NCBI RefSeq assembly: GCF_036588685.1
Contig: NC_086373.1
Coordinates: 62,868,001-62,932,000 of the forward strand
Reading direction: 5' to 3'
Source of the DNA: Mytilus trossulus
Lineage: Eukaryota
DNA: 64,000 nt
Position numbers and translations under genes: made by a program. This document shows positions 3,838 through 37,290 of this stretch, piece after piece. How positions within the stretch are numbered: the stretch's first letter is position 1; every line of letters begins with the position of its first letter. The notes under the pieces were generated by a model. The model was not told the DNA's origin, searched no databases, and saw only the letters and a program-made list of their open reading frames with translations.

Positions 3838-4682
3838 TATGTAGGATTTAACTTCTTCCCATTCCAATGTTCATCATTAATATGATTTTTTTTTAAATAT
3901 TGACAGATTCTGCACAAACTTTTACTGTTGAAAGCTATATAATATTAAGACTATTCCATTATGTAGGATTAAACTTCTTCCCATTCCAAAATGTTCATCA
4001 TTAATATGATTTTTTTAAATATTGACAGATTCTGCACAAACTTTTACTGTTGAAATCTATATAATATTAAGACTATTCCATTATGTAGGATTAAACTTCT
4101 TCCTATTCCAATGTTCATCATTAATATGATTTTTAAAAATATTGACAGATTCTGCACAAACTGTTACGGTTGAAAGACTATTCCATTGATCAATGATCCT
4201 TTGAGAAAATGAATGGAGACGCTGAGTTGAATTACACCTCTTTTTACTTAATTTCCAAGGATGTCCTCTAGTAGAATTTGTAGATAACTCAAACATATTT
4301 TGCCATTTAATATCATCTATCCCATGTAAAGCTTTATAAACTTGTATCATATCATAACGATCTCTTCTGTATTCAAGTGTTGGAAGGCCCAAGGCTCTCA
4401 ATCTTTCAACGTAACTTAACATTTTTATACTAGGCACTAATTTGGTAGCTCGACGCTGGATCTTTTCAATTCTCCTTATATCTTTCTTCAAATATGGTGA
4501 CCACACTGTAGTGGAGTATTCCAACAAAGGACGTATAATTGACTTGTATAAAATAATAAACATATCTTTTTCCAAATAGTCGAAGGAAATACGGATTAAT
4601 GCCAAGACTCTCTGGGCTTTATTCACACAGTTAGTAATATGTTTATCAAACTTTAGGTTAGGCTCAAAAGTTATTCCTAAGT
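3838..4682 (-). mobile_element. 5'-truncated CR1/L2-clade LINE (RT C-terminal region) in a CDC20 intron, with tandem re-duplication of its 3' end
   Basis: ORF 4081-4626 contains LYKSIIRPLLEY, WSPYLKKDI, EKIQRRATKLVP, LPTLEYRR and TRGHPWKL, typical of CR1/L2 ORF2. Two degenerate ~120-bp copies of its 3' end occupy 3838-4080. Confidence 0.9.
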
Positions 4683-5062
4683 CCTGGCTAAGCTATTTTA
4701 TTTTCTGGGACGCCTTCCTACAACCTCGTAAGCGTCCCAGAAAAAAAAAGCCTTGCCAGAGTCATAATTATTTGGACTAGGACTGTACATCTATGTATGA
4801 AAGAACAACAGTACCACTTCAATGCTACATCTTTTACTATTACAATTGAGCCCTTTCAATCTCGTGTTTTACAAACCCAAGTGCATAATACGTATCACTT
4901 AACTAGATGTTTATTGTATATATACGTACATAAAAAAGGAAATTTTCTGTTCTGATTTAAACACCCCTCCCCCTTTTTTTTTTTAAATATATTGGATTTC
5001 ACACGTTTTTTGTGTTAAAATGTTGTTCAAACCGTTTCGATGTAAAATTCATTTGTCGTTAC

Positions 5063-18400: not shown

Positions 18401-21244
18401 AGTGCTGGAATTTTTGCGACTGTCATATACGAGTTAGAGGTTTAGCTAGTTATACAACCAGGTTTAATCCACCATTTTCAACATAAGAAAACGCCTGTAC
18501 CAAGTCAGGAATGTGGCAGTTGTTATCCATTCGTTAGAAGTAATTGAAATTTTGATTTTGCCATTTGAATAGGGAAAACGGTTTGAATTTTCCTCGGAGT
18601 AAGGTATTTTTATTATTTAATTTATAAATAATTTCATATTAAAAAATGTAAGTTCTGAAATCTGCCAATTTGATATTGTGTGAAGTTTTGACGTCTGTTA
18701 ATTTAAGCTTTTGATGAGGGACAACAGTTTAAATTTTCCTCGGAGTTCGGTTTATTTGTTATTTTACTTTTTTCATACAGGAATAAGATTGCGTTTGCCT
18801 TTAAAGTGTGTTTACTTGATTATAGTGTCACTGTTATAGACGAAACGCACATCTCGAGTCCCAGGTTATAAGTTTGACATCTTCAATGTTCAGTGTTTTG
18901 TGAACTGATGTCTTATTTTCGTATTGTGTATGTTTTTCTTTCAAACAAACACTGGTTGTATACCACTGCTGATAACGTTTCGTATCGATTAATGTACTAC
19001 CAGCCCTGCATCAGTCAGCACTATTTTTGCGACATGAAAAATTGAGGATGTGGTCATTTCGGTAAGTTAGGCTGACAATAGTTTGCCGATGCTCAAATTG
19101 TGTACATTAATCGGACAAATTGATGATACAAACCGATTCTGGGAGAATTGTTCATAAAATTTAATGAACCCCAAAAGGAACGAAACCGGGTGCGTCGACA
19201 GGGTAAGTTTTTTGCTTTTCATGCAACGTGCATTATCACTTACTATGTAGAATGTCCTCTAATCAGGAGTAGGACACATCGATAAATTTACAGTTTTGTC
19301 TATGGATAAATGTTTAAATGACCGATTTAGTAATTTGGAGTTTTCAATGATTTTCGTAACTTAAATAAAACCTTCCACCTATTTTGATTTTAGCGAAATT
19401 GAGGAACTTATCACACAGTTGAAGAAGCACGCGACTGAGAAGTTGATTTATAAATTGAGTATCTTTCATTCGTGTGACGCACAATTCATATTTCTATTGT
19501 GCTATTGTGTGAATTTGTCGTCATTTAATTTAAGATGTTCGCTGTTATTCTAGCTGACTTTACATCTTGAAATAAACTACTGTGTTGTTTATTTGTGTAT
19601 TTCTCTGGCTTGAGTGTTCTCATATTTATTTATACTGTATTCCTGGCACGAAATGTTGTCATTAAGCGGGTTAGCCATAAAACCATTTGTATATGTCTCT
19701 TCTTATATTTGATGTGTTTTACTCAGTTTTAGTTTGCAACCCGGATTTGTTTTTTCTCAATCGATTTATGAATTTCGAACAGCGGTCTACTGTTGACTTT
19801 ACTGTACCAAGTCAGTAATATTGCAGTTGTTTCGTGTCTGTTTGCGTTTGTTTTTGAAGCAGTACATTGGTTTTTTTTGTTGTTCTGTTGTTTCCCCTTT
19901 TATAGCTGATGTGTTGTCTTCGGTTTGTTACCCGAATTTGTTTAATCGACCATTGAACAGCGGTAATATTGCCTTTGTTTATAGCTCTTTGCTATAAATT
20001 TGGTTGATACAAATTAGGGTGAATGTTTCGTTTCAATGCTATAACATTTATATCGGTAGTGATGTGGTGTTTTGAAATATTATTGATGCTATCGTTTTCT
20101 AATTTTTCATAAATGTTATAATGATTCTAAACACAATGGTTTTTATATCTATGGATAGATAAGCTATGCCAGATTCGACAGAACGCCTAATAATGCATAG
20201 TTTTTTTCTCCGAGCGCCACTTAATATTTGGTTTTAATATTAACTGATCATGAAACTAGTGTCTGTCACACAAATAAAATAACTGATATATTTCATGTTT
20301 ATTAAGAAGGTTCTTTTTCCCATGCCCTTACAAATTGAGTTGGATTTCAAACTTTTCGGACGAATACATAAAAGTGTTATTTTCATCTTAGAGTCGAGCG
20401 CAACTGTAGATGCAATGTAGATAAAACGCCAGTATGGTGTATTGCATTGTAAACTTGGTTTCTTTGGTAATTTCTACACAGGTTAGAAACCCCTGTTACA
20501 AATCTTAACTGTAATCAATAAGAATATGCCCAGCTCAGATTTCTCACACAAAGTGCCATTACATGTGTCATAAACGGTCATAAGTATCCCGACCTTTTGC
20601 TTTGCATGCAGCAGTCTGAATGCCAGAGGAAAACACGACCAATAATTAAAAAAATATAAATAAAAAATCAGAAAGGCATGCGCACTAGAAAACGACAACC
20701 AACACTGACAAAATTTGCGGAACTTCTGGTAAGTCGAAGATGAAACATCCCCAACATGACATAACAAAAACAGACTACAACTAAGTCATGTGCATGGCGT
20801 GTCAGTCCTTGTCATCGAGGCAAAGGGATCATTGCACACGGAAAGCCTCGTTGATATCCTTAATCAACTACTATCCTATTTTTAATGCGCTTGAATTATC
20901 AACTATTTTTGTAAATATCTTGTATACAGATAATTCACAGATGGTACATGATACATTATTATGGTATCTTTAAACATGACAAAAAAAAAATCGCATTAAT
21001 GACAACTCAAAATGGAAAGAAGGAACAGAAATTATACAAACATTTGGACATATGTAAAATCTTGTAATATTTTAAATACACTGACGCTTACATTCGTATT
21101 TGATTTTGCCATGTGATTATGGACTTCCCAAATTTATTTTCCTCTAAGTTCATTATTTTTGTGATTTTACTTTTTACACCAGACTGTAAAAAAAAAAGCT
21201 GTTATACAATAAATAAAAGCAAAGAATCAAGTTATTAACCAATG

Positions 21245-21250
21245 TTTATT
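21245..21250 (-). terminator. SELENOP polyadenylation signal
   Basis: AATAAA on the minus strand, about 30 nt downstream of SECIS2. Confidence 0.6.
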
Positions 21251-21279
21251 TTATAAATGTAACAAAACATGATGTAAAC

Positions 21280-21381
21280 GTGATCTAAAGATCAGTTTTT
21301 TGTCGGTTATTCTAATCCATTACCCTATTGTGTAGTTTCGTAATGAACCGTCATACTGACAATTCTCAATCTTAAGATCAC
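21280..21381 (-). promoter_or_regulatory. SECIS element 2 (SELENOP 3'UTR)
   Basis: On the minus strand, the outer helices are GTGATCT/AGATCAC and TGTC/GACA. The core is ATGAC (21354-21350) ... AGAA, helix II is GGTTCATTAC/GTAATGGATT, and the apical AAA precedes a CTA..TAG mini-stem. Confidence 0.88.
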
Positions 21382-21461
21382 AGGATACAATAATATAAAC
21401 GGTTCTAACATACAACAACAAAATGTGTTAATCAATAATAATTATTTCAGCATGCTGACAA

Positions 21462-21559
21462 CGAGTTCACGGTTTAATCTGTTCAGCAGTCAGTCATCAA
21501 AATATCGTTCAAGCGTTTCATTTTGAAGCGTCATCATTAACAATTAAACGGTGAACTCG
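21462..21559 (-). promoter_or_regulatory. SECIS element 1 (SELENOP 3'UTR)
   Basis: On the minus strand, helix I is CGAGTTCAC..GTTTAA / TTAAAC..GTGAACTCG. The core is ATGAC (21534-21530) ... TGAC, helix II is TCAAAATG/TATTTTGA, and the apical AAA is followed by a mini-stem. Confidence 0.85.
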
Positions 21560-21646
21560 AAGTGTGCTTATGGTACATATTACACAAACCAATTAAAAAA
21601 TTATGCACTTTTTAAAAGAAATTGGAAATTCCACTGATGACCCAAT

Positions 21647-24600
21647 TTACGAAAGCATGTGACTGTTCTGTCATCGTCAAGCCTGTGAATCATGGTGTCA
21701 AAGTCAAATACCATGTCCGTCATTTTCATTACGTCAATGGCACGCGCCTACTTGTCACTGACATCTTGTCTGTCAAGGTCAAAGCTGTCCATCCTGACGA
21801 CTCTCCTCTCATGTTTGTCCTGATGAAGTCAAGCCTTGTCATTGTCAGTCATTACCAACAGTGAGACATTGTCAAGTTCTGGTTGACCTACGACCAGAAC
21901 TAGGTCAAGAACAAACGTCTGCCTCGTAATGTTGTCCTGAACAGTGTCAGTTCAAAGATGGTCCCTCGCTATGTCACTGGCATCTCCTCTGACATCTTCA
22001 TGAAGGAGAACTACTTCTTGGACTGGTTCATTGGCATTGTTCTTCGTGACTCATGGTTGTTTGTCATTGTCAGCGTTCGTCTGATTGGTGACTTTGTCAT
22101 CGTATTTCAGCAGAGACAGTTTCACCAATTGGTCAGTTTCATGTAAGTTCTCCACTGTCTGAAGTTATGCATTGTCACATGCAGTTCCCAGATAAATGGT
22201 CTCACTGTCATGTCTTCGTTCCAGATTCGCTGTTTTGTCAGCGTCAAGGACTTGAAGTGCTCTTTGTTGAACATTGTCAAGGTCCGGAACTTTGTGATCA
22301 ATTGCATACTTGCTGGTTTGGTCACTGTCAGCTAACGTTATCACCCTCCGTCTGTCACGAGCATGTATCGTCTGTTTGAGGTCATGAACATATCTGAACA
22401 CCAGTCTCTTCAGTTAGTCACTGTCATGATGGGTTGGCTGATATATCCAAGGGTCACCTACAAGTAGCAGATGAGTTGGTTGCATGAAAATCACAAGGTC
22501 AGTCAGTCAAAAATTCTCAATTAGGTCTAGCAATTTCACTATGTAAAGAGTGACGTCTCAAAAATGAATCTCAGTTTAATCATACACATTCTTGAACAAC
22601 AGTCAAATTGAGCTCTTCACAAGAGCACAAGCCTAGTCTTTCAGGGAAAAACGCTTGTCTACAAGCACAGTTATTTTCTAGATCTGATGAAACGGAAGGA
22701 CAAACTCATGCGCGTCTGTTTCTTTGATTTTTATAATGTTTTTTCATAAAATTTCATAATTTTCTAATTACTTTATGCGTGGGTATTGGACGGTTTCATC
22801 TATTTCTAATTCAATTTGGTGTACGATTCATGTCTCGTACTGCTGATCTTCCCATTCCTACGACAATGGCGCTACCTCCAGATCTATGACTATGCGGACG
22901 TTCGTGGTTGTGTCTTCTACGACGTCGGTGTGATCTACGTAAACTGCGTTGACATCCGCATGGATCTGTATCGTATGCAGTACGGATTGCCCAATCTGTA
23001 AGATGGTAACGCAACAAGCTTGATGGAAATGGTATAAAGTAAACTAATTTGCCGCATCTGTGAACGAAAAAAGACTATATGTTTGGCTTTATAAGCGTAC
23101 GTATTGCATCCCTGCTGCATACCATTGTGCAAAGATTTAATAAGATATATATACATTATCGTTGCTATGTTCGCACACATTTCACTGTTACAAAATAAGT
23201 ATAACAAAGAGCTCCAACAATGATCAATTTAAATTGCAAGTAAATTTATATTGAATGTCATTAATCCTGATTATAACTTCATTGAATAGTAGTAATTGTT
23301 TTCTTAATTTTCTCGTTTAACGTTTATGCTCAGTTCAATAGCTATTTAACTATAGGAATCTTAAATATGTCCTCTGGTTGGATTGTCTTTTAGTAGCTCA
23401 CAATGCATCTATATTATAAATTGCTATGATTTATATGTTTTTTTAAAATTTTAAATGTACAGGAACCTGATATTCAGTGGTTGTCGTCTGTTAATGTGAT
23501 CCTTAAATGTTCTTGTTTCTCGGTTTTTCTATAGATTATACCATTGGTTTCCCGTTTGAATGGTTTTCCACTGGTAATTTTTGGGGCCTTTATTTCTTGT
23601 CTTCTATGAGAGCCATGGCTCCTTGTCGAAGACCTATATATTGGTTAACATTTTTACAAATTGTGACTTGGATAGAGAGTTGTCCCATTGGCACTCATAC
23701 TATATCTATATGATATAATATTGCAATATTTTTTCAATTCTTACAAATTGTGACTTGGATAGAGAGTTGTTCCATTGACGCTCATACTACATCTTCATTT
23801 ATCTATATGATAATATTGCAATATCTTATCAATTCTTACCTATCATATATCAATACGTCATCTTTTCCGCCATTTAGTTTATTCCATATGTTTGTAGTGC
23901 TTGTATCTTGGTACACAGGAAAGTTAGCTCTACTGGAAAGTTGTCCAATTTGTTCAGGAACTTCTTTGGAATTTACAATCATAAAACTGATTTCTGTACG
24001 GCCATGGGCGATGTATTCTTGACGAATAGTCTCAAGCCTACATTGTACACACATTAATTTATTTGAAGTAGTTTTAACAAATAAAGACGAATGAAAGGAG
24101 GGGATTAATTACACAGAGTACTAATTTCCTAAATACCTTTTTTTTGTATTTTTTCCCCAGTTTATTATCCCAGATACGATTCATTTTAACTCCTATCGAG
24201 CTGCCTAATCATGGAATCCCACTATAACCTACATCTCAAACTCGTATTTGATCTTACGAGTATTTGATACAATAATGTGATATAAGAAGTATAGGCATTT
24301 TTTCATTAATTAATAAAATCTTAAATCTAAAATTATCCAGACATAAACGTTTTTTTTTACTTTCAGACTGTTCATAGTTAATCATTTGAAATCTGTTGAA
24401 TGTGAAATGTGAAGAAAAGGAATAAGACAAATTCAAATATTACAAATTTGCAGTATTTGATTATAAACACAATCAATTTAAGTAAAGGAATTGATATTTT
24501 CAAATCCTTTCCCATACATGAGGATGTGGATGGGGGGTTTACAGAATACAAAATATTGGACAAAAAATAAAAGGTGTAAAAAAATAAACTTAATAGACGA

Positions 24601-24867
24601 AAATGCTTTACACGTATAACACCATTCACTATAGCAATCCGTAAATATTCATCTAATAAATGATAACACATACCCTGCCGCTTGTTGCTGACACATGGGT
24701 CATGTAGCCAGCAGTAGTGACACTACTGTTACTTTGCCACGCGTGTCCAGCATCGGCTGATCTCCACTGGGGGTTCGCCAGGTTGGTGGATCCTGACAGA
24801 ACCTTCCAGATACGCTGACAAGTAAAGCAGCAGCGAGCAACCCGGTCAACATACCGGGGCTCCTCAT
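21647..24867 (-). CDS. SELENOP: Selenoprotein P, 600 aa, with 45 in-frame UGA (Sec) codons
   Basis: Coding exons 24867-24674, 24037-23840 and 23057-21647 are GT/AG with phases 2/2 and total 1803 nt. The protein has a signal peptide, then FCQDPPTW..DQPMLDTRGKVTVVSLLLAT-U-PMC (UxxC, TGA at 24702-24700) and IWNKLNGGKDDVLIYDRCGKLVY, collinear with the vertebrate SelP_N domain. An Arg/His-rich linker follows, then 44 more TGA codons with no TAA/TAG until the TAA at 21649-21647. Two SECIS elements lie downstream. Confidence 0.97.
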
Positions 24868-25909
24868 TGTTCCTCTTCTGAAAGAAAAGAAAAATGAGTT
24901 AACTAAATATCTGTCATTAAGCTAAACGAAAGGTATTTCTATTGGCCGGGTTTACAACAAAATCATTATAATATGAAGCTTCGTAAAAATAAATTGAAGG
25001 TAATATGAAAAAAATTATCAAAGGTACCAGGATTATGATTTAATACGCCAGACGCGCGTTTCGTCTACATAAGACTCATCAGTTACGCTCCGATCAAAAT
25101 AGTTATAAAAACAAACAAGTACAAAGTTGAAGACATTGATACTCATGAAAGTTAAACATTGCAAACATGTTTATATATTTTTACGTAAACCCCGAATAAA
25201 AATACGTACAAAGAACGGGGAATTAGTTCAAGTCAATATACATTTACATCTATGTGTTGCAATAAACGTTCTGAACGAGTGAAATGTTGAACTTTGAAAA
25301 TGCCTGTACTAAGTCAGGAACATGACTGTTGTTGTCGATTCGTTTGATTTGTTTTATAATTTGATTTTACCATTTGGTTAGGGACTTTCCGTTTTGAATT
25401 TTTCTCGGAGTTCAGTATTTTTGTGATTTTACTTTTTGGTCACAATTTTACAATGATCACTATTTTCAGCATAAGGCCCCTTACTAAAAGCAATTTTATT
25501 TTTTATTGACACAATTGTTGTCTACATTTTTTCTATGATGGAGCTTCCGTAAAAGATTAATTGTGTAACTAACTGTGTAAACTTCTTGTGTTGTGGTTAG
25601 AAGCAACCCACTTATACTTTAACAAATATATCCGGAAAGTTCGTTATTGTAAATAATGTAATTGCCAAAGTAAAAAAAATAATATAACGCTTAGTTTAAG
25701 ATTAATTTCATCAGAGATTCTAGGCTTACAATAATTATGTTATCTTTATGCACGCGTTGTCTACAAAAGACTCATCAGTAAAGTTTTAACTAAAAAGTTG
25801 AAGGCCATAGTTGAAAATTATATTTAGTTCTTCCAACAAAAAAGTTCTGTAATAGAGAGCACAGAATATAAATGGCTTTAGCTAAAATGTAAATTAACCA
25901 CATGATTAT

Positions 25910-26000
25910 CATCTTCGCTAGCCAAGGGTTACGATCCACTTCCGTTCTCTTCACTTTGAAAAGAGCGGGAGTTGATCGTAACCCTTGGCTAGCGAAGATG
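25910..26000. mobile_element. 91-bp near-perfect hairpin MITE in SELENOP intron 1
   Basis: 27-bp perfect inverted arms CATCTTCGCTAGCCAAGGGTTACGATC / GATCGTAACCCTTGGCTAGCGAAGATG, with further inner pairing. Confidence 0.7.
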
Positions 26001-27387
26001 TATGATTATACGATGGCCTTAAAAGTTATAAGTTTGTACTTTGGGATATCAAGTAACCTCCAATAAATTGTGTTGTTATTGCTCTTGCTCTCATTGATGT
26101 AAAACTTATTCCCCCCCCCCCCCCCCCAAAAAAAAAATACAATCAGCTTGACATGGACACGAAATTTTGACATCTGCAGAATCATTTTTGCTGGCATTCA
26201 AGTTTACGTTTTCGCTAAAAGAGAGACGAAAAATGCCAGAGGGAGGGACGTCAAACTTAGTTATGTTATGTTAAATCGGTTCCAATTGAAACTGACCGTG
26301 CGATCCCTCATGGGTAGCATGGTCGTTTAACACCCCTATCAGAAGTAGTACCTCTCATCTATGTAGATCACACAAAGTTGGCCAAATTAAATGATGTCTT
26401 TTTATTGTTGTGCAATCACATTAGTTATTCATCAGTTCATTGTCAATAACGTTATCTATATATATATATGGTTTAAACTCCAGTTGATAAATATGTGAAA
26501 AACAAGTTCAACGGCCCTATGCACCTGTCCTTGAAATAGATAATAGGGCAATAAGATGTAAGACTTTAATTTTTAAAGATGCTTTAAATACTAATTGGTC
26601 CTGTTTCGTTCATCTTGCCTGCAGCTCAGGAGATATAAAACGCTGACAGGGATATGAGCCCATATTGCCTGTGACGATCCCGATTGTAAAACTCATTAAC
26701 CATTGAAGTTAGTTCGTAGAGCGAGGTCTTTAAAACCAGACAATTTCGTTAAAAACACAATCATCAACACTGGGAACATTTGTCACCTCTGTAACCATAC
26801 TTCTCAATTGACATTAACTGATATTCCAAACAAACAACTACAAACAATAAAACACGGTCAATGCAGATTGTCTGACACACAGCGACTATTCAGACAACAA
26901 TCAAAAAGAAAGGGCATCGACCAATTTTTATACTTAGTTCAAATTTGGAAAACATCAGTAAAAGCCTAAATTTACTGATCTTCCTAAGTTTTGAAAGGGC
27001 TATTGGACGCGCTGTCGGACGTCGTTATACTTATGCACTCACGTCGAGATTTTAAGTATGTTTTCATGACATACAATATTTTTTTTATATTCCTTTATTT
27101 GAGTGTTCGTGTGTTTTATGACAAGGAATATGACAGTGTCCATTCGTTTGATGTGTTTTATCATTTGATTTTGCCATTTGATTATAATTATATTTTCCGT
27201 TTGAATTATCCTCGGAGTTCAGTAATTTTGTGGTTTTACTTTTAACAATTACTTACACGTGTATATAATTTATAAATATAAGAAATGACTAGATTTCATA
27301 ACAATATTAGATGGTCGGAAGTCTCTCATCACACCACCGACAGTGCCTAATGTAAGATAACATGGATAGAAAAACCAACATTCTTAC

Positions 27388-27484
27388 CTTATATGTAAAA
27401 GTGTTCCTGTGCAAAAAGTGGATGTCGATTACAGTTTATTCGTAATATAATGTCGACAACAATTTTCCTATGCTTTTATATATA
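27388..27484 (-). promoter_or_regulatory. Probable SELENOP TATA box and non-coding exon 1
   Basis: TATATAAAAG near 27484-27473 and a strong donor AAG|GTAAGA at 27388. The first coding exon begins with an acceptor only 10 nt before the ATG, so an upstream non-coding exon is required. Confidence 0.5.
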
Positions 27485-28102: not shown

Positions 28103-29461
28103 TACGGGGCGCCGAATGGGACTCTTGTGGTTTTGTACAAAATTCAATTCTGTCATAACAAAATCATTTTTGTCTTACAAAACTATGTGCTACAGACTTG
28201 TTTTGTGAGAACTTCAATTTTGTGATGACAAAATTCATTTGTGTAGACAAAATTCATTTTTGTCATGACAAAATTCATTTTTGTAGACAAAATTCATTTT
28301 TGTAGACAAAATTCATTTTTGTAGACAAAATTCATTTTTGTAGACAAAATTCATTTTTGTAGACAAAATTCATATTTGTCATGACAAAAGTCAATTTTGT
28401 CTAAAAGGTATGCAAATATAAACATATTTGCATACAAAATTGACTTTTGTTACCTGATATGGAAATTAAATCACAAAAGTCAATTGTGTGAGGTAAGATT
28501 CAATTTTGTGAGACAAAATTGACTTTTGTGAGACAAAATTGACTTTTGTGAGACAAAATTAAATTTTGTGAGACAAAATTCAATTTCGTTGAGACAAAAG
28601 TCAATTTTGTCAATTTTGTTGAGACAAAAATCGATTTTGTCAATTTTGTTGAGACAAAAGTCAATTTTGTTAATTTTGTTGAGACAAAGTCAATTTTGTC
28701 AATTTTGTAGAGACAAAAAGTCAATTTTGTGATGACAAAATTCATTTTTGTGACGACAAAATTCAATTTTGTAACAAAAAAATTTACTTTTATGAGACAA
28801 AATTGACTTTCGTGAGACAAAATTGACTTTCGTGAGACAAAATTGACTTTCGTGAGACAAAAATCAATTTTGTTGAGACAAAATTCAATTTTGTTGAGAC
28901 AAAATTCAATTTTGTCAATTTTGTTGAGACAAAAGTCAATTTTGTCAATTTTGTTGAGACAAAAGTCAATTTTGTCAATTTTGTTGAGACAAAATTCAAT
29001 TTTGTCAATTTTGTTGAAACAAAAGTCAATTTTGTTGATCACATTGGTCAATTTTGTCAATTTTGTTGAGACAAAAGTCAATTTTGTCAATTTTGTCTCA
29101 CAAAAGTCAATTTTGTCAATTTTGTCTCACAAAAGTCAATTTTGTGTAACAAAAGTCGATTTTGTATGCAAATTAGTTCACAGAAACCGAACTATACTAA
29201 TTTGAATACAAAATTGACTTTTGTCGCCCAATTTTCAAATTAGGTAACAAAAGTCAAGTCTGTGTAACAAAAATGAATTTTGTCATGACAAAAGTGATTT
29301 TTGTCCGCTGATATATAATTTTGTATGACAAAATTTTAAATTTGTAGTATGATACAAATTTTGTTAAACTGAACTCATTTTTGTTGAACAAAAGTCACTT
29401 TTGTCCGTACAAAATTGAATTTTGAGTACAAAATCACAAGAGTCCCATTCGGCGCCCCGTA
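28103..29461. mobile_element. Foldback-like non-autonomous DNA transposon with internal GACAAAA/TTTTGTC satellite-like repeats (copy 1)
   Basis: TIR TACGGGGCGCCGAATGGGACTCTTGTG / CACAAGAGTCCCATTCGGCGCCCCGTA, with GAATT on both flanks. The interior is made of 20-29-bp quasi-palindromic units. Confidence 0.85.
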
Positions 29462-31185
29462 GAATTTGGACCCAAAACAAAACTGCATGCAGGTAAACTG
29501 AACTTTCCGAATTTTAATTTGACAAACGCATTCCAATTATTAAGATGTTGCAAGATCGTGGTATATATTTTGATTAGCATGTGTAAGTATATGAACATAT
29601 TATATTCCTGTGTTGAAATTGATATTAGACCCCTAAAATATTCAAAGGCTACATATGCGAAACATATACGTACGATGGCGTGAAAACTTTTCAATTTATC
29701 AGATATGAATTTGCAGAGTTGCAAAACACGTGTAAATAAGATAACATTAAACAACGCACACACGATCGTGACATTACTTCGATGAATTCATACGAAGAGA
29801 CAAATGACAAATTGACTTAATCTTGACAAAAAATAGTTACAGACCCAAGTCTGTTGTAATTACTTTATACAGCATGGAATGGAGCTGTATACTTCGCATA
29901 CTTAATGTATCAATAATGCCTATAGTTAAATGATCGTAAGGTTACATCATAAACTCATCATAGATACCAGAATTGAACTTTTGTATTTAAGACAGACACG
30001 TATTTCATCTACGAAACACTCATCAGTAACGCTCGAATCAAAATTTTCTAAAAAGGCCAAATAAGTACGAAGTTGAAGAGCAATAAAGACTTAAAATTAC
30101 TTATAGTTAGCAAAGGTACCAGGATTATAATTTAGTATGCCAGACGCGCGTTTCATCAACATAAGACTCATCAGTGACGCTCAACTCAAAATATTTATAA
30201 AACCAAACAAGTTCAAAATTGAAGAGCATTGAGGTTCCAAAATTCCAAAAAGTTGTGCCAAATACGGCTAAGTTAATCTATGCTTGGGATAAGAAAATTC
30301 TTAGTTTTTCGAAAAATTCAAAGTTTTGTAAACAGGAAATTTATAAAAATGACCATATCAATTATAACTCGTGTCGACACAGAAGTGCTGACAATTATCA
30401 TATTAGAGAATTGTAGGTGGGCGTACAGTTTAATTATGATTTGAATATACTTTTAACCCAAAAATGTGGTATTCTCTTCCCTAGGAGGATTCGAACTCAA
30501 GCTGTTCAGACACACGACAACTGTACTGTGTCCATAGACTAAGACAATGTCCTCGATCAACAGAGCTGTATAAAAGATGGTGGGTTAATCTATATGGATG
30601 AGACACACTACATGGTCCATCGTTATTCGGGTTATATGCCTTTCCTCGTCTACTTACAGGATACAGTGATATAGAGTGGCATGGACGGGCACATAGGTGC
30701 AGTTAATTTTTATTGCAATTAACACTGAGTACATTGTATATTCTTATTGCTCTGATTTTATTTCGAATATAATTACATCAGTGCATCTAATACGTAAACA
30801 AACCGTGACGTAAACAAACAAATTCATGTAAAAAAGTAAAATATCTCTACTAAATCATTTATGAATTTATGTATTTTTCTCACGTGAGGTGTGCATGTAT
30901 ATAGGTCATCCAATGAACTCCAGTCTGTTCTTAGAATAGAAAATAAGTAAATGTTATACGGTCGTCATACGAAAGAATAACTTAGATAGAAGAAGAAAAT
31001 GGTTGCAGTCGTCTGTATAGTTGATCCATTTTCTTGGCAATGCATACAGAACCCAAACCTTTGTTTTCTGTGGTATTTGATAGGCAAGTAATATGGCAGT
31101 TGTTATCAAATACAACAATGTAGCTCGTTTCCATGTATTTTGGCGTTTGTTTCTGTTGCACTTCAGTGATTCTGTTGTTCCCCCT

Positions 31186-32030
31186 TGTGAGACAAAATTC
31201 AATTTCGTTGAGACAAAAGTCAATTTTGTCAATTTTGTTGAGACAAAATCGATTTTGTCAATTTTGTTGAGACAAAAGTCAATTTTGTTAATTTTGTTGA
31301 GACAAAAGTCAATTTTGTCAATTTTGTAGAGACAAAAAGTCAATTTTGTGATGACAAAATTCATTTTTGTGACTAAAAAATTCAATTTTGTAACAAAAAA
31401 ATTTACTTTTATGAGACAAAATTGACTTTCGTGAGACAAAAATCAATTTTGTTGAGACAAAATTCAATTTTGTCAATTTTGTTGAGACAAAAGTCAATTT
31501 TGTCAATTTTGTTGAGACAAAAGTCAATTTTGTCAATTTTGTTGTGACAAAATTCAATTTTGTCAATTTTGTTGAAACAAAAGTCAATTTTGTCTCACAT
31601 TGGTCAATTTTGTCTCACAAAAATCAATTTTGTTGATCACATTGGTCAATTTTGTCAATTTTGTTGAGACAAAAGTCAATTTTGTCAATTTTGTCTCACA
31701 AAAGTCAATTTTGTGTAACAAAAGTCGATTTTGTATGCAAATTAGTTCACAGAAACCGAACTATACTAATTTGAATACAAAATTGACTTTTGTCGCCCAA
31801 TTTTCAAATTAGATAACAAAAGTCAAGTCTGTGTAACAAAAATGAATTTTGTCATGACAAAAGTGACTTTTGTCCGCTGATATATAATTTTGTATGACAA
31901 AATTTTAAATTTGTAGTATGATACAAATTTTGTTAAACTGAACTCATTTTTGTTGAACAAAAGTCACTTTTGTCCGTACAAAATTGAATTTTGAGTACAA
32001 AATCACAAGAGTCCCATTCGGCGCCCCGTA
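31186..32030. mobile_element. Same element, copy 2 (left end deleted)
   Basis: The right TIR ends at 32030. The left TIR is missing because of the unit-2 deletion. Confidence 0.8.
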
Positions 32031-33926
32031 GAATTTGGACCCAAAACAAATTTTAAAACTGCATGCAGGTAAACTGAACTTTCCGAATTTTAATTTGACA
32101 AACGCATTCCAATTATTAAGATGTTGCAAGATCGTGGTATATATTTTGATTAGCATGTGTATGTATATGAACATATTATATTCCTGTGTTGAAATTGATA
32201 TTAGACCCCCAAAATATTCAAAGGCTACATATGCGAAACATATACGTACGATGGCGTGAAAACTTTTCAATTTATCAGATATGAATTTGCAGAGTTGCAA
32301 AACACGTGTAAATAAGATAACATTAAACAACGCACACACGATCGTGACATTACTTCGATGAATTCATACGAAGAGACAAATGACAAATTGACTTAATCTT
32401 GACAAAAAATAGTTACAGACCCAAGTCTGTTGTAATTACTTTATACAGCATGGAATGGAGCTGTATACTTCGCATACTTAATGTATCAATAATGCCTATA
32501 GTTAAATGATCGTAAGGTTACATCATAAACTCATCATAGATACCAGAATTGAACTTTTGTATTTAAGACAGACACGTATTTCATCTACGAAACACTCATC
32601 AGTAACGCTCGAATCAAAATTTTCTAAAAAGGCCAAATAAGTACGAAGTTGAAGAGCAATAAAGACTTAAAATTACTTATAGTTAGCAAAGGTACCAGGA
32701 TTATAATTTAGTATGCCAGACGCGCGTTTCATCAACATAAGACTCATCAGTGACGCTCAACTCAAAATATTTATAAAACCAAACAAGTTCAAAATTGAAG
32801 AGCATTGAGGTTCCAAAATTCCAAAAAGTTGTGCCAAATACGGCTAAGTTAATCTATGCTTGGGATAAGAAAATTCTTAGTTTTTCGAAAAATTCAAAGT
32901 TTTGTTAACAGGAAATTTATAAAAATGACCATATCAATTATAACTCGTGTCGACACAGAAGTGCTGACAATTATCATATTAGAGAATTGTAGGTGGGCGT
33001 ACAGTTTAATTATGATTTGAATATACTTTTAACCCAAAAATGTGGTATTCTCTTCCCTAGGAGGATTCGAACTCAAGCTGTTCAGACACACGACAACTGT
33101 ACTGTGTCCATAGACTAAGACAATGTCCTCGATCAACAGAGCTGTATAAAAGATGGTGGGTTAATCTATATGGATGAGACACACTACATGGTCCATCGTT
33201 ATTCGGGTTATATGCCTTTCCTCGTCTACTTACAGGATACAGTGATATAGAGTGGCATGGACGGGCACATAGGTGCAGTTAATTTTTATTGCAATTAACA
33301 CTGAGTACATTGTATATTCTTATTGCTCTGATTTTATTTCGAATATAATTACATCAGTGCATCTAATACGTAAACAAACCGTGACGTAAACAAACAAATT
33401 CATGTAAAAAAGTAAAATATCTCTACTAAATCATTTATGAATTTATGTATTTTTCTCACGTGAGGTGTGCATGTATATAGGTCATCCAATGAACTCCAGT
33501 CTGTTCTTAGAATAGAAAATAAGTAAATGTTATACGGTCGTCATACGAAAGAATAACTTAGATAGAAGAAGAAAATGGTTGCAGTCGTCTGTATAGTTGA
33601 TCCATTTTCTTGGCAATGCATACAGAACCCAAACCTTTGTTTTCTGTGGTATTTGATAGGCAAGTAATATGGCAGTTGTTATCAAATACAACAATGTAGC
33701 TCGTTTCCATGTATTTTGGCGTTTGTTTCTGTTGCACTTCAGTGATTCTGTTGTTCCCCCTATTTTTCCGCTGATAGTTGATGTGTTTCCCTCGGTTAAA
33801 GTTTGTTACTCGGATTTTTTTTCTCTCAATCGATTAAGACTTTGAAACACCGGAGTACTACTGTTACCTTTATTCATATACATTTTTATCGTTAAACATT
33901 ACTGAAAATTAGTTATAGCCTGAATT

Positions 33927-35239
33927 TACGGGGCGCCGAATGGGACTCTTGTGGTTTTGTACAAAATTCAATTCTGTCATAACAAAATCATTTTTGTCTT
34001 ACAAAACTATGTGCTACAGACTTGTTTTGTGAGAACTTCAATTTTGTGATGACAAAATTCATTTGTGTAGACAAAATTCATTTTTGTCATGACAAAATTC
34101 ATTTTTGTAGACAAAATTCCTTTTTGTAGACAAAATTCATTTTTGTAGACAAAATTCATATTTGTCATGACAAAAGTCAATTTTGTCTAAAAGGTATGCA
34201 AATATAAACATATTTGCATACAAAATTGACTTTTGTTACCTGATATGGAAATTAAATCACAAAAGTCAATTGTGTGAGGTAAGATTCAATTTTGTGAGAC
34301 AAAATTGACTTATGTGAGACAAAATTGACTTTTGTGAGACAAAATTCAATTTTGTGAGACAAAATTAAATTTTGTGAGACAAAATTCAATTTCGTTGAGA
34401 CAAAAGTCAATTTTGTCAATTTTGTTGAGACAAAATCGATTTTGTCAATTTTGTTGAGAGAAAAGTCAATTTTGTTAATTTTGTTGAGACAAAAGTCAAT
34501 TTTGTCAATTTTGTAGAGACAAAAAGTCAATTTTGTAGAGACAAAAAGTCAATTTTGTGATGACAAAATTCATTTTTGTGACGACAAAATTCAATTTTGT
34601 AACAAAAAAATTTACTTTTATGAGACAAAATTGACTTTCGTGAGACAAAAATCAATTTTGTTGAGACAAAATTCAATTTTGTCAATTTTGTTGAGACAAA
34701 AGTCAATTTTGTCAATTTTGTTGAGACAAAAGTCAATTTTGTCAATTTTGTTGTGACAAAATTCAATTTTGTCAATTTTGTTGAAACAAAAGTCAATTTT
34801 GTCTCACATTGGTCAATTTTGTCTCACAAAAATCAATTTTGTTGATCACATTGGTCAATTTTGTCAATTTTGTTGAGACAAAAGTCAATTTTGTCAATTT
34901 TGTCTCACAAAAGTCAATTTTGTGTAACAAAAGTCGATTTTGTATGCAAATTAGTTCACAGAAACCGAACTATACTAATTTGAATACAAAATTGACTTTT
35001 GTCGCCCAATTTTCAAATTAGATAACAAAAGTCAAGTCTGTGTAACAAAAATGAATTTTGTCATGACAAAAGTGACTTTTGTCCGCTGAAATATAATTTT
35101 GTATGACAAAATTTTAAATTTGTAGTATGATACAAATTTTGTTAAACTGAACTCATTTTTGTTGAACAAAAGTCACTTTTGTCCGTACAAAATTGAATTT
35201 TGAGTACAAAATCACAAGAGTCCCATTCGGCGCCCCGTA
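33927..35239. mobile_element. Same element, copy 3 (complete)
   Basis: Both TIRs and both GAATT flanks are present. Confidence 0.85.
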
Positions 35240-37290
35240 GAATTTGGACCCAAAACAAAACTGCATGCAGGTAAACTGAACTTTCCGAATTTTAATTTGA
35301 CAAACGCATTCCAATTATTAAGATGTTGCAAGATCGTGGTATATATTTTGATTAGCATGTGTATGTATATGAACATATTATATTCCTGTGTTGAAATTGA
35401 TATTAGACCCCCAAAATATTCAAAGGCTACATATGCGAAACATATACGTACGATGGCGTGAAAACTTTTCAATTTATCAGATATGAATTTGCAGAGTTGC
35501 TAAACACGTGTAAATAAGATAACATTAAACAACGCACACACGATCGTGACATTACTTCGATGAATTCATACTAAGAGACAAATGACAAATTGACTTAATC
35601 TTGACAAAAAATAGTTACAGACCCAAGTCTGTTGTAATTACTTTATACATCATGGAATGGAGCTGTATACTTCGCATACTTAATGTATCAATAGTGCCTA
35701 TAGTTATTAAATGATCGTAAGGTCACATCATAAACTCATCATAGATACCAGAATTAAACTTTTGTATTTAAGACAGACACGTATTTCATTTACGAAACAC
35801 TCACCAGTAACGCTCGAATCAAAATTTGCTAAAAAGGCCAAATAAGTACGAAGTTGAAGAGCAATAAAGGCTTAAAATTACTAGTAGTTAGCAAAGGTAC
35901 CAGGATTATGATTTAGTACGCCAGACGCGCGTTTCATCAACATAAGACTCATCAGTGACGCTCAACTCAAAATATTTATAAAACCAAACAAGTTCAAAGT
36001 TGAAGAGCATTGAGGATCCAAAATTCCAAAAAGTTGTGCCAAATACGGCTAAGTTAATCTATGCTTGGGATAAGAAAATTATTAGTTTTTCGAAAAAATC
36101 AAAGTTTTGTAAACAGGAAATTTATAAAAATGACCATATCAATTATAACTCGTGTCGACACAGAAGTGCTGACAACTATCATATTAGAGAATTGTAGGTG
36201 GGCGTACAGTTTAATTATGATTTTATAGATACTTTTAACCCAAAAATGTAGTAATCTCTTCCCTAGGGGGATTCGAATTCAAGCTGTTCAGACACATACG
36301 ACAACTGTACTGTGTCCAACGACTAAGACAGTGTTCTCGATCAACAGAGCCATACAAAAGATGTTGGGTTAATCTATGGATGAGACACACTACATGGTCC
36401 TTCGTTATTCGGGTAATGCCTTTCCTCGTCGACTTACAGGATACAGTGATATACAGTGGCATGGACGGGTACATTAGTGCAGTTAATTGCAATTAACACT
36501 GAGTACATTGTATATTCTTATTGCTCTGATTTTATGTCGAATATAATTACATCAGTGCATCTAATACGTAAACAAACCATGACGTAAACAGACTAATTCT
36601 TGTAAAAAAGTAAAATATCTCTACTAAATCATTTATGAATTTATGTATTTTTCTCACGTGAGGTGTGCATGTATATAGGTCATGCAATGAACTCCAGTCT
36701 GTTCTTAGAATAGAAAATTAGTAAATGTTATACGGTCGTCATACGAAAGAAGAACTTAGATAGAAGAAGAAAATGGTGTACAGTCGTCTGTATAGTTGAT
36801 CCATTTTATTGGCAATGCATACAGAACCCAAACCTTTGTTTTCTGTGGTATTTGATACCAAGAATTGGCCAGAAAAGTCATAGTAATTGAAGATAGAAAG
36901 CATAAGCGACAAACTATATCTGGAGTAAATATGAAGTACTTGTATCCCAAAGAAAAATAAACAGGTTACAACGTAAATAACTTTGGCAACACTTGAACCA
37001 GCCATGTGAATTCAATCAAAGACTTTGTATATAGAATCTTTCCAGACACTTTGGTGATATTGTTTGCGGACAAACATTGATGTCTTTTTGTGAATCTAAC
37101 AATTGAAATGTGATAAAGAAGGACATCATCTATAAAGACTAATTTAATTAGTTAACCACAGAACGATAAGCTGATGATTCCTGTGTGTTGAAATGCTCAT
37201 CCATCCTATATAAATATAATATATTATAGGTAAAATAAACATTTAATGACGGATCTTCATCAGAACACACTTACAATTACGTACATAATT

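Follow-up and report, generated by a model that had tools for sequence, protein, structure and literature searches.

Behind a long, UGA-rich open frame in the 64,000-nt stretch of Mytilus trossulus DNA analyzed here (contig NC_086373.1; hereafter the window) lie two hairpins, which raise the question of whether they are the SECIS elements of a selenoprotein P (SELENOP) gene and, if so, how they share the decoding of its many UGAs. A first-pass annotation, made from the letters alone, had taken them for a tandem SECIS pair and had pointed to the mammalian arrangement, in which one element is thought to serve the first UGA and the other those downstream. We asked whether the gene is real, whether each hairpin has what a SECIS element needs, and which account of their joint action fits best.

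The hairpins, the SELENOP gene, its motifs and the poly(A) signal are all on the minus strand, which the first-pass annotation had left unstated; a plus-strand reading of the hairpins, which fold there as mirror images, was rejected on this ground. With TGA translated as selenocysteine (Sec), the Mytilus SELENOP frame extends over three coding exons and 600 codons, contains 45 in-frame UGAs, as the first-pass annotation had counted, and has a terminal TAA as its sole other stop:

24674..24867, minus strand: first coding exon of SELENOP (ATG at 24867, exon start at ~24877), with a signal-peptide-like N-terminus and a U-P-M-C redox motif
24702-24700, minus strand: UGA1, codon 56, within the U-P-M-C motif of the first coding exon
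23840..24037, minus strand: second coding exon, thioredoxin-like domain
21647..23057, minus strand: last coding exon, encoding a linker rich in His/Arg and a Sec-rich tail that accounts for 44 of the in-frame UGAs
21649-21647, minus strand: stop codon TAA

Alternatively, this could be a pseudogene in which UGA means stop, followed by structures that arose by chance in AT-rich DNA, and it is true that RefSeq annotates merely a 155-aa product here, which by eye matches residues 58-212, between UGA1 and UGA2. Such a pseudogene is difficult to reconcile with a last-exon frame that holds 44 TGAs, no TAG and one terminal TAA over 469 codons, with 24 and 9 TAA/TAG codons in the other two frames. Moreover, all 44 tail UGA positions (44/44) align with W or C alone in seven of seven homologues, full-length proteins that we picked from larger match lists and that form four clusters, 49-82% identical; the W is presumably TGA translated as Trp by a gene caller. 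Judged by this alignment, the in-frame UGAs of SELENOP are sense codons.

Multi-Sec SELENOP proteins are recognized by a UxxC motif together with a SelP_N domain, by a tail in which UGA alone exchanges with Cys, and by two downstream SECIS elements. Here, the UxxC motif is U-P-M-C, and Pfam SelP_N (PF04592) scored 34.4 bits on the first coding exon and 36 bits on the second (cutoff, 23.2), with no Pfam match on the last coding exon. The UGA/Cys tail is seen in the window, in the seven homologues and in L001, an orthologous contig considered below, and two SECIS elements follow, the first of them weak. A 155-aa model named "selenoprotein P-like [Mytilus trossulus]" matches the second coding exon with 100% identity, and public NCBI Mytilus models of SELENOP end at a UGA, omit the UGA1 segment or change frame. 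We offer an annotation correction, in that the gene likely encodes not a 155-aa RefSeq-type fragment but a 600-aa protein with 45 selenocysteines, which bears on selenium storage in mussels.

Within the tail (21650-22450, minus strand), 31 of 44 UGAs are followed by C, and a U-x-U pair recurs roughly every 10 to 12 codons, a pattern that suggests modular repeats. At codon 570 (window 21740) the window has TGC, and L001 and contigs of three of four sequencing runs have TGA; the Sec count therefore differs among close relatives.

Spliced contigs from four public runs, whose status as RNA is a guess, likewise argue against a pseudogene. The GT-AG intron at joint 23057/23840 is skipped in contigs of all four runs and that at joint 24036/24673 in contigs of three of the four. 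One contig (run X1) covers 21278-21690, a span that takes in the stop along with both hairpins, and shows no differences from the window; another (X14 record 7) carries 18 differences across 21325-21484. Contig depth was lower over SECIS2 than over SECIS1 in three of four runs, but depth of this kind cannot rank the parts of a gene, so that it gives no sign of cleavage between the elements, and run contigs cannot reveal a 3' end or an expression level.

Several further features were seen upstream of the coding exons. A contig of run X1 has 33 unplaced letters beyond 24879, and a candidate noncoding first exon lies at about 27455-27388 (minus strand), where a TATA-like box stands near 27483, a GT donor near 27388 closes the exon and no AUG was noticed; when an upstream exon was sought with peptide motifs taken from annotated N-terminal extensions, none turned up. 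Hammerhead_1-like matches occur on the minus strand at 25045-25088, 30137-30180 and 32713-32756 (28.5 to 29.3 bits; cutoff, 34). All three are likely dispersed retroelement-type repeats, and the first, upstream of the first coding exon, is probably in an intron. Also upstream of that exon is a 44-bp inverted repeat at 25910-26000, 91% complementary and with a loop of 3 nt; no other local hairpin of the window is as stable. A very common dispersed repeat has copies at 21124-21174, 25386-25436 and 27193-27243, one of which starts ~70 nt beyond the poly(A) signal, and elsewhere in the window a 203-aa open frame (4081-4692, minus strand) resembles, and presumably represents, the C-terminal portion of a reverse transcriptase of LINE type.

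The first-pass annotation had described, in a 3' UTR of about 400 nt, two hairpins with an AUGA..GA core, a helix II of about 10 to 11 bp, an apical AAA and long outer helices, starting about 90 nt past the stop and followed by AATAAA. Both hairpins were recovered where it had put them and with these parts, except that helix II of SECIS1 is imperfect. The first helix of SECIS1 begins 87 nt past the stop, the distance from the stop to the end of the AATAAA is 402 nt, and the features are as follows:

21462..21559, minus strand: SECIS1 (proximal element), predicted type 2, 20 outer pairs (9+7+4)
21559-21551 and 21470-21462, minus strand: first outer helix of SECIS1, CGAGUUCAC / GUGAACUCG
21534-21531 (AUGA), 21518-21516 (AAA) and 21492-21489 (3' core UGAC, GA at 21491), minus strand: core of SECIS1
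21529-21519/21504-21493, minus strand: helix II of SECIS1, 10 standard pairs, one U.U and a bulged A21494
21382..21461, minus strand: spacer between SECIS1 and SECIS2, 80 nt, U-rich (46% U), unstructured (z +0.84)
21280..21381, minus strand: SECIS2 (distal element), predicted type 2, ~19 outer pairs (7+7+5)
21381-21375 and 21286-21280, minus strand: first outer helix of SECIS2, GUGAUCU / AGAUCAC
21354-21351 (AUGA), 21338-21336 (AAA) and 21313-21310 (3' core AGAA, GA at 21312), minus strand: core of SECIS2
21349-21340/21323-21314, minus strand: helix II of SECIS2, a clean 10 bp with three G.U pairs
21250-21245, minus strand: AATAAA, likely polyadenylation signal, ~30 nt past SECIS2, cleavage site unmapped

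The spacing from AUGA to AAA is 12 nt in both cores, and the core GA is present on both strands (AUGAN ... NGAN), as AUGAC/UGAC in SECIS1 and AUGAC/AGAA in SECIS2, all retained in L001. The preferred consensus is UGAN/KGAW, a tendency, given that search patterns ask only for NGAN (PMC3753652); the UGAC of SECIS1 departs from KGAW at the W, where the UGAU of L001 fits, and the AGAA of SECIS2 departs at the K. A SECIS must stand more than 51 to 111 nt from a UGA according to the same source, and here 137 nt separate the last UGA from the AUGA of SECIS1, with the run X1 contig joining the stop to both hairpins.

Could a pair of this kind arise by chance? In DNA this rich in AT, SECIS patterns have little specificity by themselves: the bare motif has 165 matches in the window (134 expected) and the strict SECISearch pattern has 17, six of them inside a satellite. 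The AT-rich satellite blocks at ~28200-36200, which lie upstream of SELENOP in repeated multi-kb segments, produce false matches to SECIS patterns and to miRNAs. The strict pattern was re-implemented here from the supplement of PMC3753652, the SECISearch program itself not being used. As re-implemented, it matched both elements, with the helix II of 11-13 nt and the unpaired AA after it that a SECIS calls for, although SECIS1 needed one bulge and one mismatch. In dinucleotide shuffles of this UTR, one strict match appeared in 93/2000 and two in 0/2000, and thus the pair in this UTR exceeds chance.

Scoring of the hairpins gave a divided answer, in that both elements match the strict pattern and yet both fall below the Rfam gathering score of 35, at which the window as a whole has no matches. 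SECIS2 misses it narrowly (SECIS_1, 34.7 bits; E 3.6e-5 in 601 nt) and is the sole SECIS match among the 21 Rfam matches at E<=1 in the window; SECIS1 scores 15.3 bits (E 1.4) and emerges only when 116 nt are searched. Scores below the cutoff leave the ability to work like a SECIS unaffected. When we applied the SECISearch3 filter by hand to the modeled structures (loop 8-30, stem 7-15, bending <=2, energy <= -4), both fell within its limits, with loop 14, stem 11, bending 1 and -5.9 kcal/mol for SECIS1 and loop 16, stem 10, bending 0 and -9.0 kcal/mol for SECIS2. Matches of C/D snoRNA and miRNA models over SECIS1 (10 to 19 bits; cutoffs, 36 to 98) were taken as chance.

Thermodynamic stability was less telling. 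Whole-hairpin z-scores of -4.4 to -4.8 were obtained with boundaries picked from the structure itself; a fixed 100-nt scan gave z -4.2 for SECIS1 and -0.6 for a step that clips SECIS2, and when the window's 479 local structures are ranked by stability, both hairpins fall outside the first 30. We do not count hairpin stability as strong evidence, and its modest level, together with the 17 strict matches, is what a chance origin would have in its favor. The frame, the homologues, the spliced contigs, the shuffles and a distal core that is invariant in L001 all contradict a chance or pseudogene origin, which is already largely refuted and which we regard as scarcely credible.

In the context of the full UTR, most helix pairs of both elements have predicted probabilities above 0.8. 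The whole of SECIS1 folds at -27.0 kcal/mol, and its helix III has 2 bp (probability 0.92-0.95; 3 bp in L001). Its weak point lies near the core, where the bulged A sits two pairs above and the adjoining G-C pair has a probability of 0.22. Because the 65-nt core of SECIS1 alone is no more stable than its shuffles (z -0.42), and yet its upper helix II pairs reach 0.92-1.00 in the full UTR, we infer that the basal stem holds the register. A register starting from the overlapping AUGA at 21537 was rejected, as it matches the loose pattern only; L001 has ACGA there but keeps the AUGA at 21534, the AAA and the GA, and the 21534 register is therefore favored. In SECIS2, helix III (CUA/UAG, 3 bp) is invariant in L001 and aligns to the Rfam helix III, yet its predicted probability is 0.1. 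SECIS2 is a near-canonical SECIS, and from its modeled structure it is almost certainly functional as one; SECIS1, modeled in the same way, very probably is.

To see how the two elements have been maintained, we compared them with the one orthologous UTR found, that of L001, a metagenome contig recovered by DNA pattern and a close relative of the window gene. The same DNA-pattern search returned no orthologous UTR among genome and viral contigs, and protein-based scans of metagenome and genome contigs returned none. In the coding region, 56/1086 bases differ; L001 has 41 UGAs over the compared stretch, 40 of them in common with the window, and both differences are UGA/Cys swaps. With four-fold sites as the neutral reference (19/123 changed), the core of SECIS2 is strongly conserved (0/45; P 5e-4 versus four-fold sites), and that of SECIS1 is not below neutral (5/46; P 0.27), although SECIS1 as a whole element is (7/98; P 0.011) and its outer helices changed at 1/43. 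The 80-nt spacer changed at about the neutral rate (13/80), and the linker from the stop to SECIS1 is fairly conserved (8/87). L001 also retains AATAA and terminates there.

Nine of 67 pairs changed between the window and L001, of which five remain paired, two were gained and two were lost; in SECIS2, all five changed pairs remain or are gained. No pair changed on both sides, in a comparison of two sequences with 97% of cells paired and five one-sided changes, and paired positions did not differ significantly from unpaired ones (9/134 versus 8/66 changed; P 0.28, from two close sequences). The long outer helices are conserved without compensatory change. For two such close sequences, the comparison with L001 is compatible with the predicted structure, but it is not covariation.

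The imbalance between the two cores raises the potential that SECIS2 is the sole efficient element and that SECIS1 is weak, conditional or decaying, its outer helix being kept for, e.g., protein binding or mRNA stability. SECIS1 scores 15.3 and 18.5 bits in the window and in L001 (L001 1177-1273), against 34.7 and 28.0 for SECIS2; its bulge lies close to the core, its core changes near the neutral rate above a well-kept outer helix, and helix II in L001 has a second U.U. The L001 copy also matches the default and loose patterns alone, not the strict one. However, AUGA, AAA, GA and their spacing are all retained in L001, three of the five core changes make for better pairing or a closer consensus fit (G.U to A-U, C.A to U-A and UGAC to UGAU), SECIS1 lies within the hand-applied filter limits, and even SECIS2 narrowly misses the Rfam cutoff. 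We consider this reading of SECIS1 improbable.

The reading that we prefer, and that we hold to be probable from the modeled structures, is that both hairpins of the Mytilus SELENOP 3' UTR are SECIS-type elements that bind SBP2 and have 45 UGAs read as selenocysteine, perhaps acting largely interchangeably. The AUGA/GA core of each would form a predicted G.A/A.G kink-turn bound by SBP2, and SBP2 on each hairpin would recruit eEFSec/Sec-tRNA, so that UGAs are read as selenocysteine; this established pathway works remotely, serving any UGA that is in frame (PMC8704476). Outer helices of ~20 bp may let each element fold independently and prop up the weak core of SECIS1. Together, the two elements would raise the local supply of SBP2 and eEFSec instead of splitting the first UGA from those downstream. 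Interchangeability, argued by analogy, is the least secure step, for which we see about an even chance. Baclaocos et al. (2019, J Mol Biol 431:4381) are reported to have seen no functional differentiation in vitro between the two SECIS elements of oyster SELENOP. That the two Mytilus cores differ in score and in conservation (Fisher P 0.056) fits poorly with full interchangeability.

A mammal-like division of labor, with SECIS1 driving the 44 tail UGAs processively and SECIS2 serving UGA1, is the arrangement established in mouse by deletion and ribosome profiling, in which the downstream UGAs fall to SECIS1 and the first one to SECIS2 (PMC5727441; PMC5133445). In the SELENOP family, the first UGA is described as decoded inefficiently and the downstream ones efficiently (PMC5133445). 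The layout in Mytilus is similar, with one N-terminal UGA near an exon junction and then a UGA-rich last exon, and the two cores differ in sequence and are both retained in L001. Against such a split, both Mytilus elements are predicted to be of type 2, rather than form 2 plus form 1, and it is the proximal one that is weaker; the vertebrate SECIS2 is described as having arisen at the vertebrate gene duplication, which would make the positions equivalent but not homologous (PMC5133445). The result reported for oyster would also speak against it. We think a mammal-like split unlikely in Mytilus. The transfer of the mammalian scheme in the first-pass annotation was thus overstated, as far as structure goes, the proximal element being both weaker and more variable. 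It is also conceivable, though quite improbable, that mytilids invert the vertebrate arrangement, with an invariant, processive distal SECIS and a proximal one that is bulged just over its kink-turn, stands on a near-invariant 20-bp basal stem, has low affinity and is tuned by selenium; the long basal stems of both would then help a UTR of half the human length to sustain 45-fold processive insertion.

Returning to two largely interchangeable elements, the claim that these two alone must service all of the UGAs also went too far, since vertebrate SELENOP needs structures in the coding region as well, the ISL and SRE1 (PMC5727441), and weak candidates for both are found here:

24820..24877, minus strand: weak candidate initiation stem-loop (ISL-like), over and just past the AUG; z -2.26, 5/200 shuffles as stable
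24674..24725, minus strand: weak candidate for an SRE1-like hairpin, topped by UGA1; z -2.04, 7/200 shuffles as stable

How does this gene compare with known systems? Two downstream SECIS elements are the usual layout of multi-Sec SELENOP across Metazoa (PMC13134290), and the view of such a pair as a SELENOP hallmark agrees with what PMC5133445 and PMC13134290 describe. The suggestion that 45 UGAs make the gene a standout model fared less well, in that the number is matched by the 46 Sec of oyster SELENOP (PMC8230778) and exceeded by freshwater mussel (132 UGAs, PMC13134290; 133 Sec, PMC8744743) and by lampreys (162 and 139 UGAs; PMC13134290). The closest system is the SelenoP of the Pacific oyster (Magallana/Crassostrea gigas), a bivalve gene with a like Sec count (46 versus 45 here), although the oyster belongs to a family other than Mytilidae and the likeness concerns Sec count and described layout, not SECIS sequences. 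We found no paper on the SECIS elements of Mytilus SELENOP in a search confined to papers outside subscription access and judged on titles and the starts of abstracts. The oyster study by Baclaocos et al., or its supplements, may already contain Mytilus elements.

Mammalian SELENOP shares with Mytilus the two SECIS elements per 3' UTR, the AU-rich UTR, the U-rich spacer and a poly(A) signal soon past the second element. It differs in size, the human UTR being 843 nt with an inter-SECIS region of 358 nt (PMC9337670) against ~400 nt and an 80-nt spacer in Mytilus; in type, being form 2 plus form 1 (PMC5133445) with 10 UGAs, whereas both Mytilus elements are predicted to be type 2 and there are 45 UGAs; and in that the less canonical element of Mytilus is the proximal one. 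The fish pair is of type 2 throughout (PMC5133445), as is predicted for Mytilus, and is probably of independent origin. Relative to the Rfam (RF00031) and SECISearch models, both elements have the AUGA-N12-AAA...GA core, a helix I, a helix II of 10 to 11 pairs and an apical mini-helix, but both score below the Rfam gathering score, each 3' core is off KGAW by one base, and each element has ~15 extra basal pairs beyond the modeled helix I.

Thus, the two-hairpin arrangement behind Mytilus SELENOP is real but ordinary, and it alters no current view, since bivalves and lampreys are already documented to have SELENOP genes with two SECIS elements and many UGAs. With its 80-nt spacer and its pairing of a strong element with a weak one, the ~400-nt UTR is a convenient swap-in for existing SELENOP reporters, which could ask whether processivity hinges on SECIS position, on type or on the length of the basal stem.
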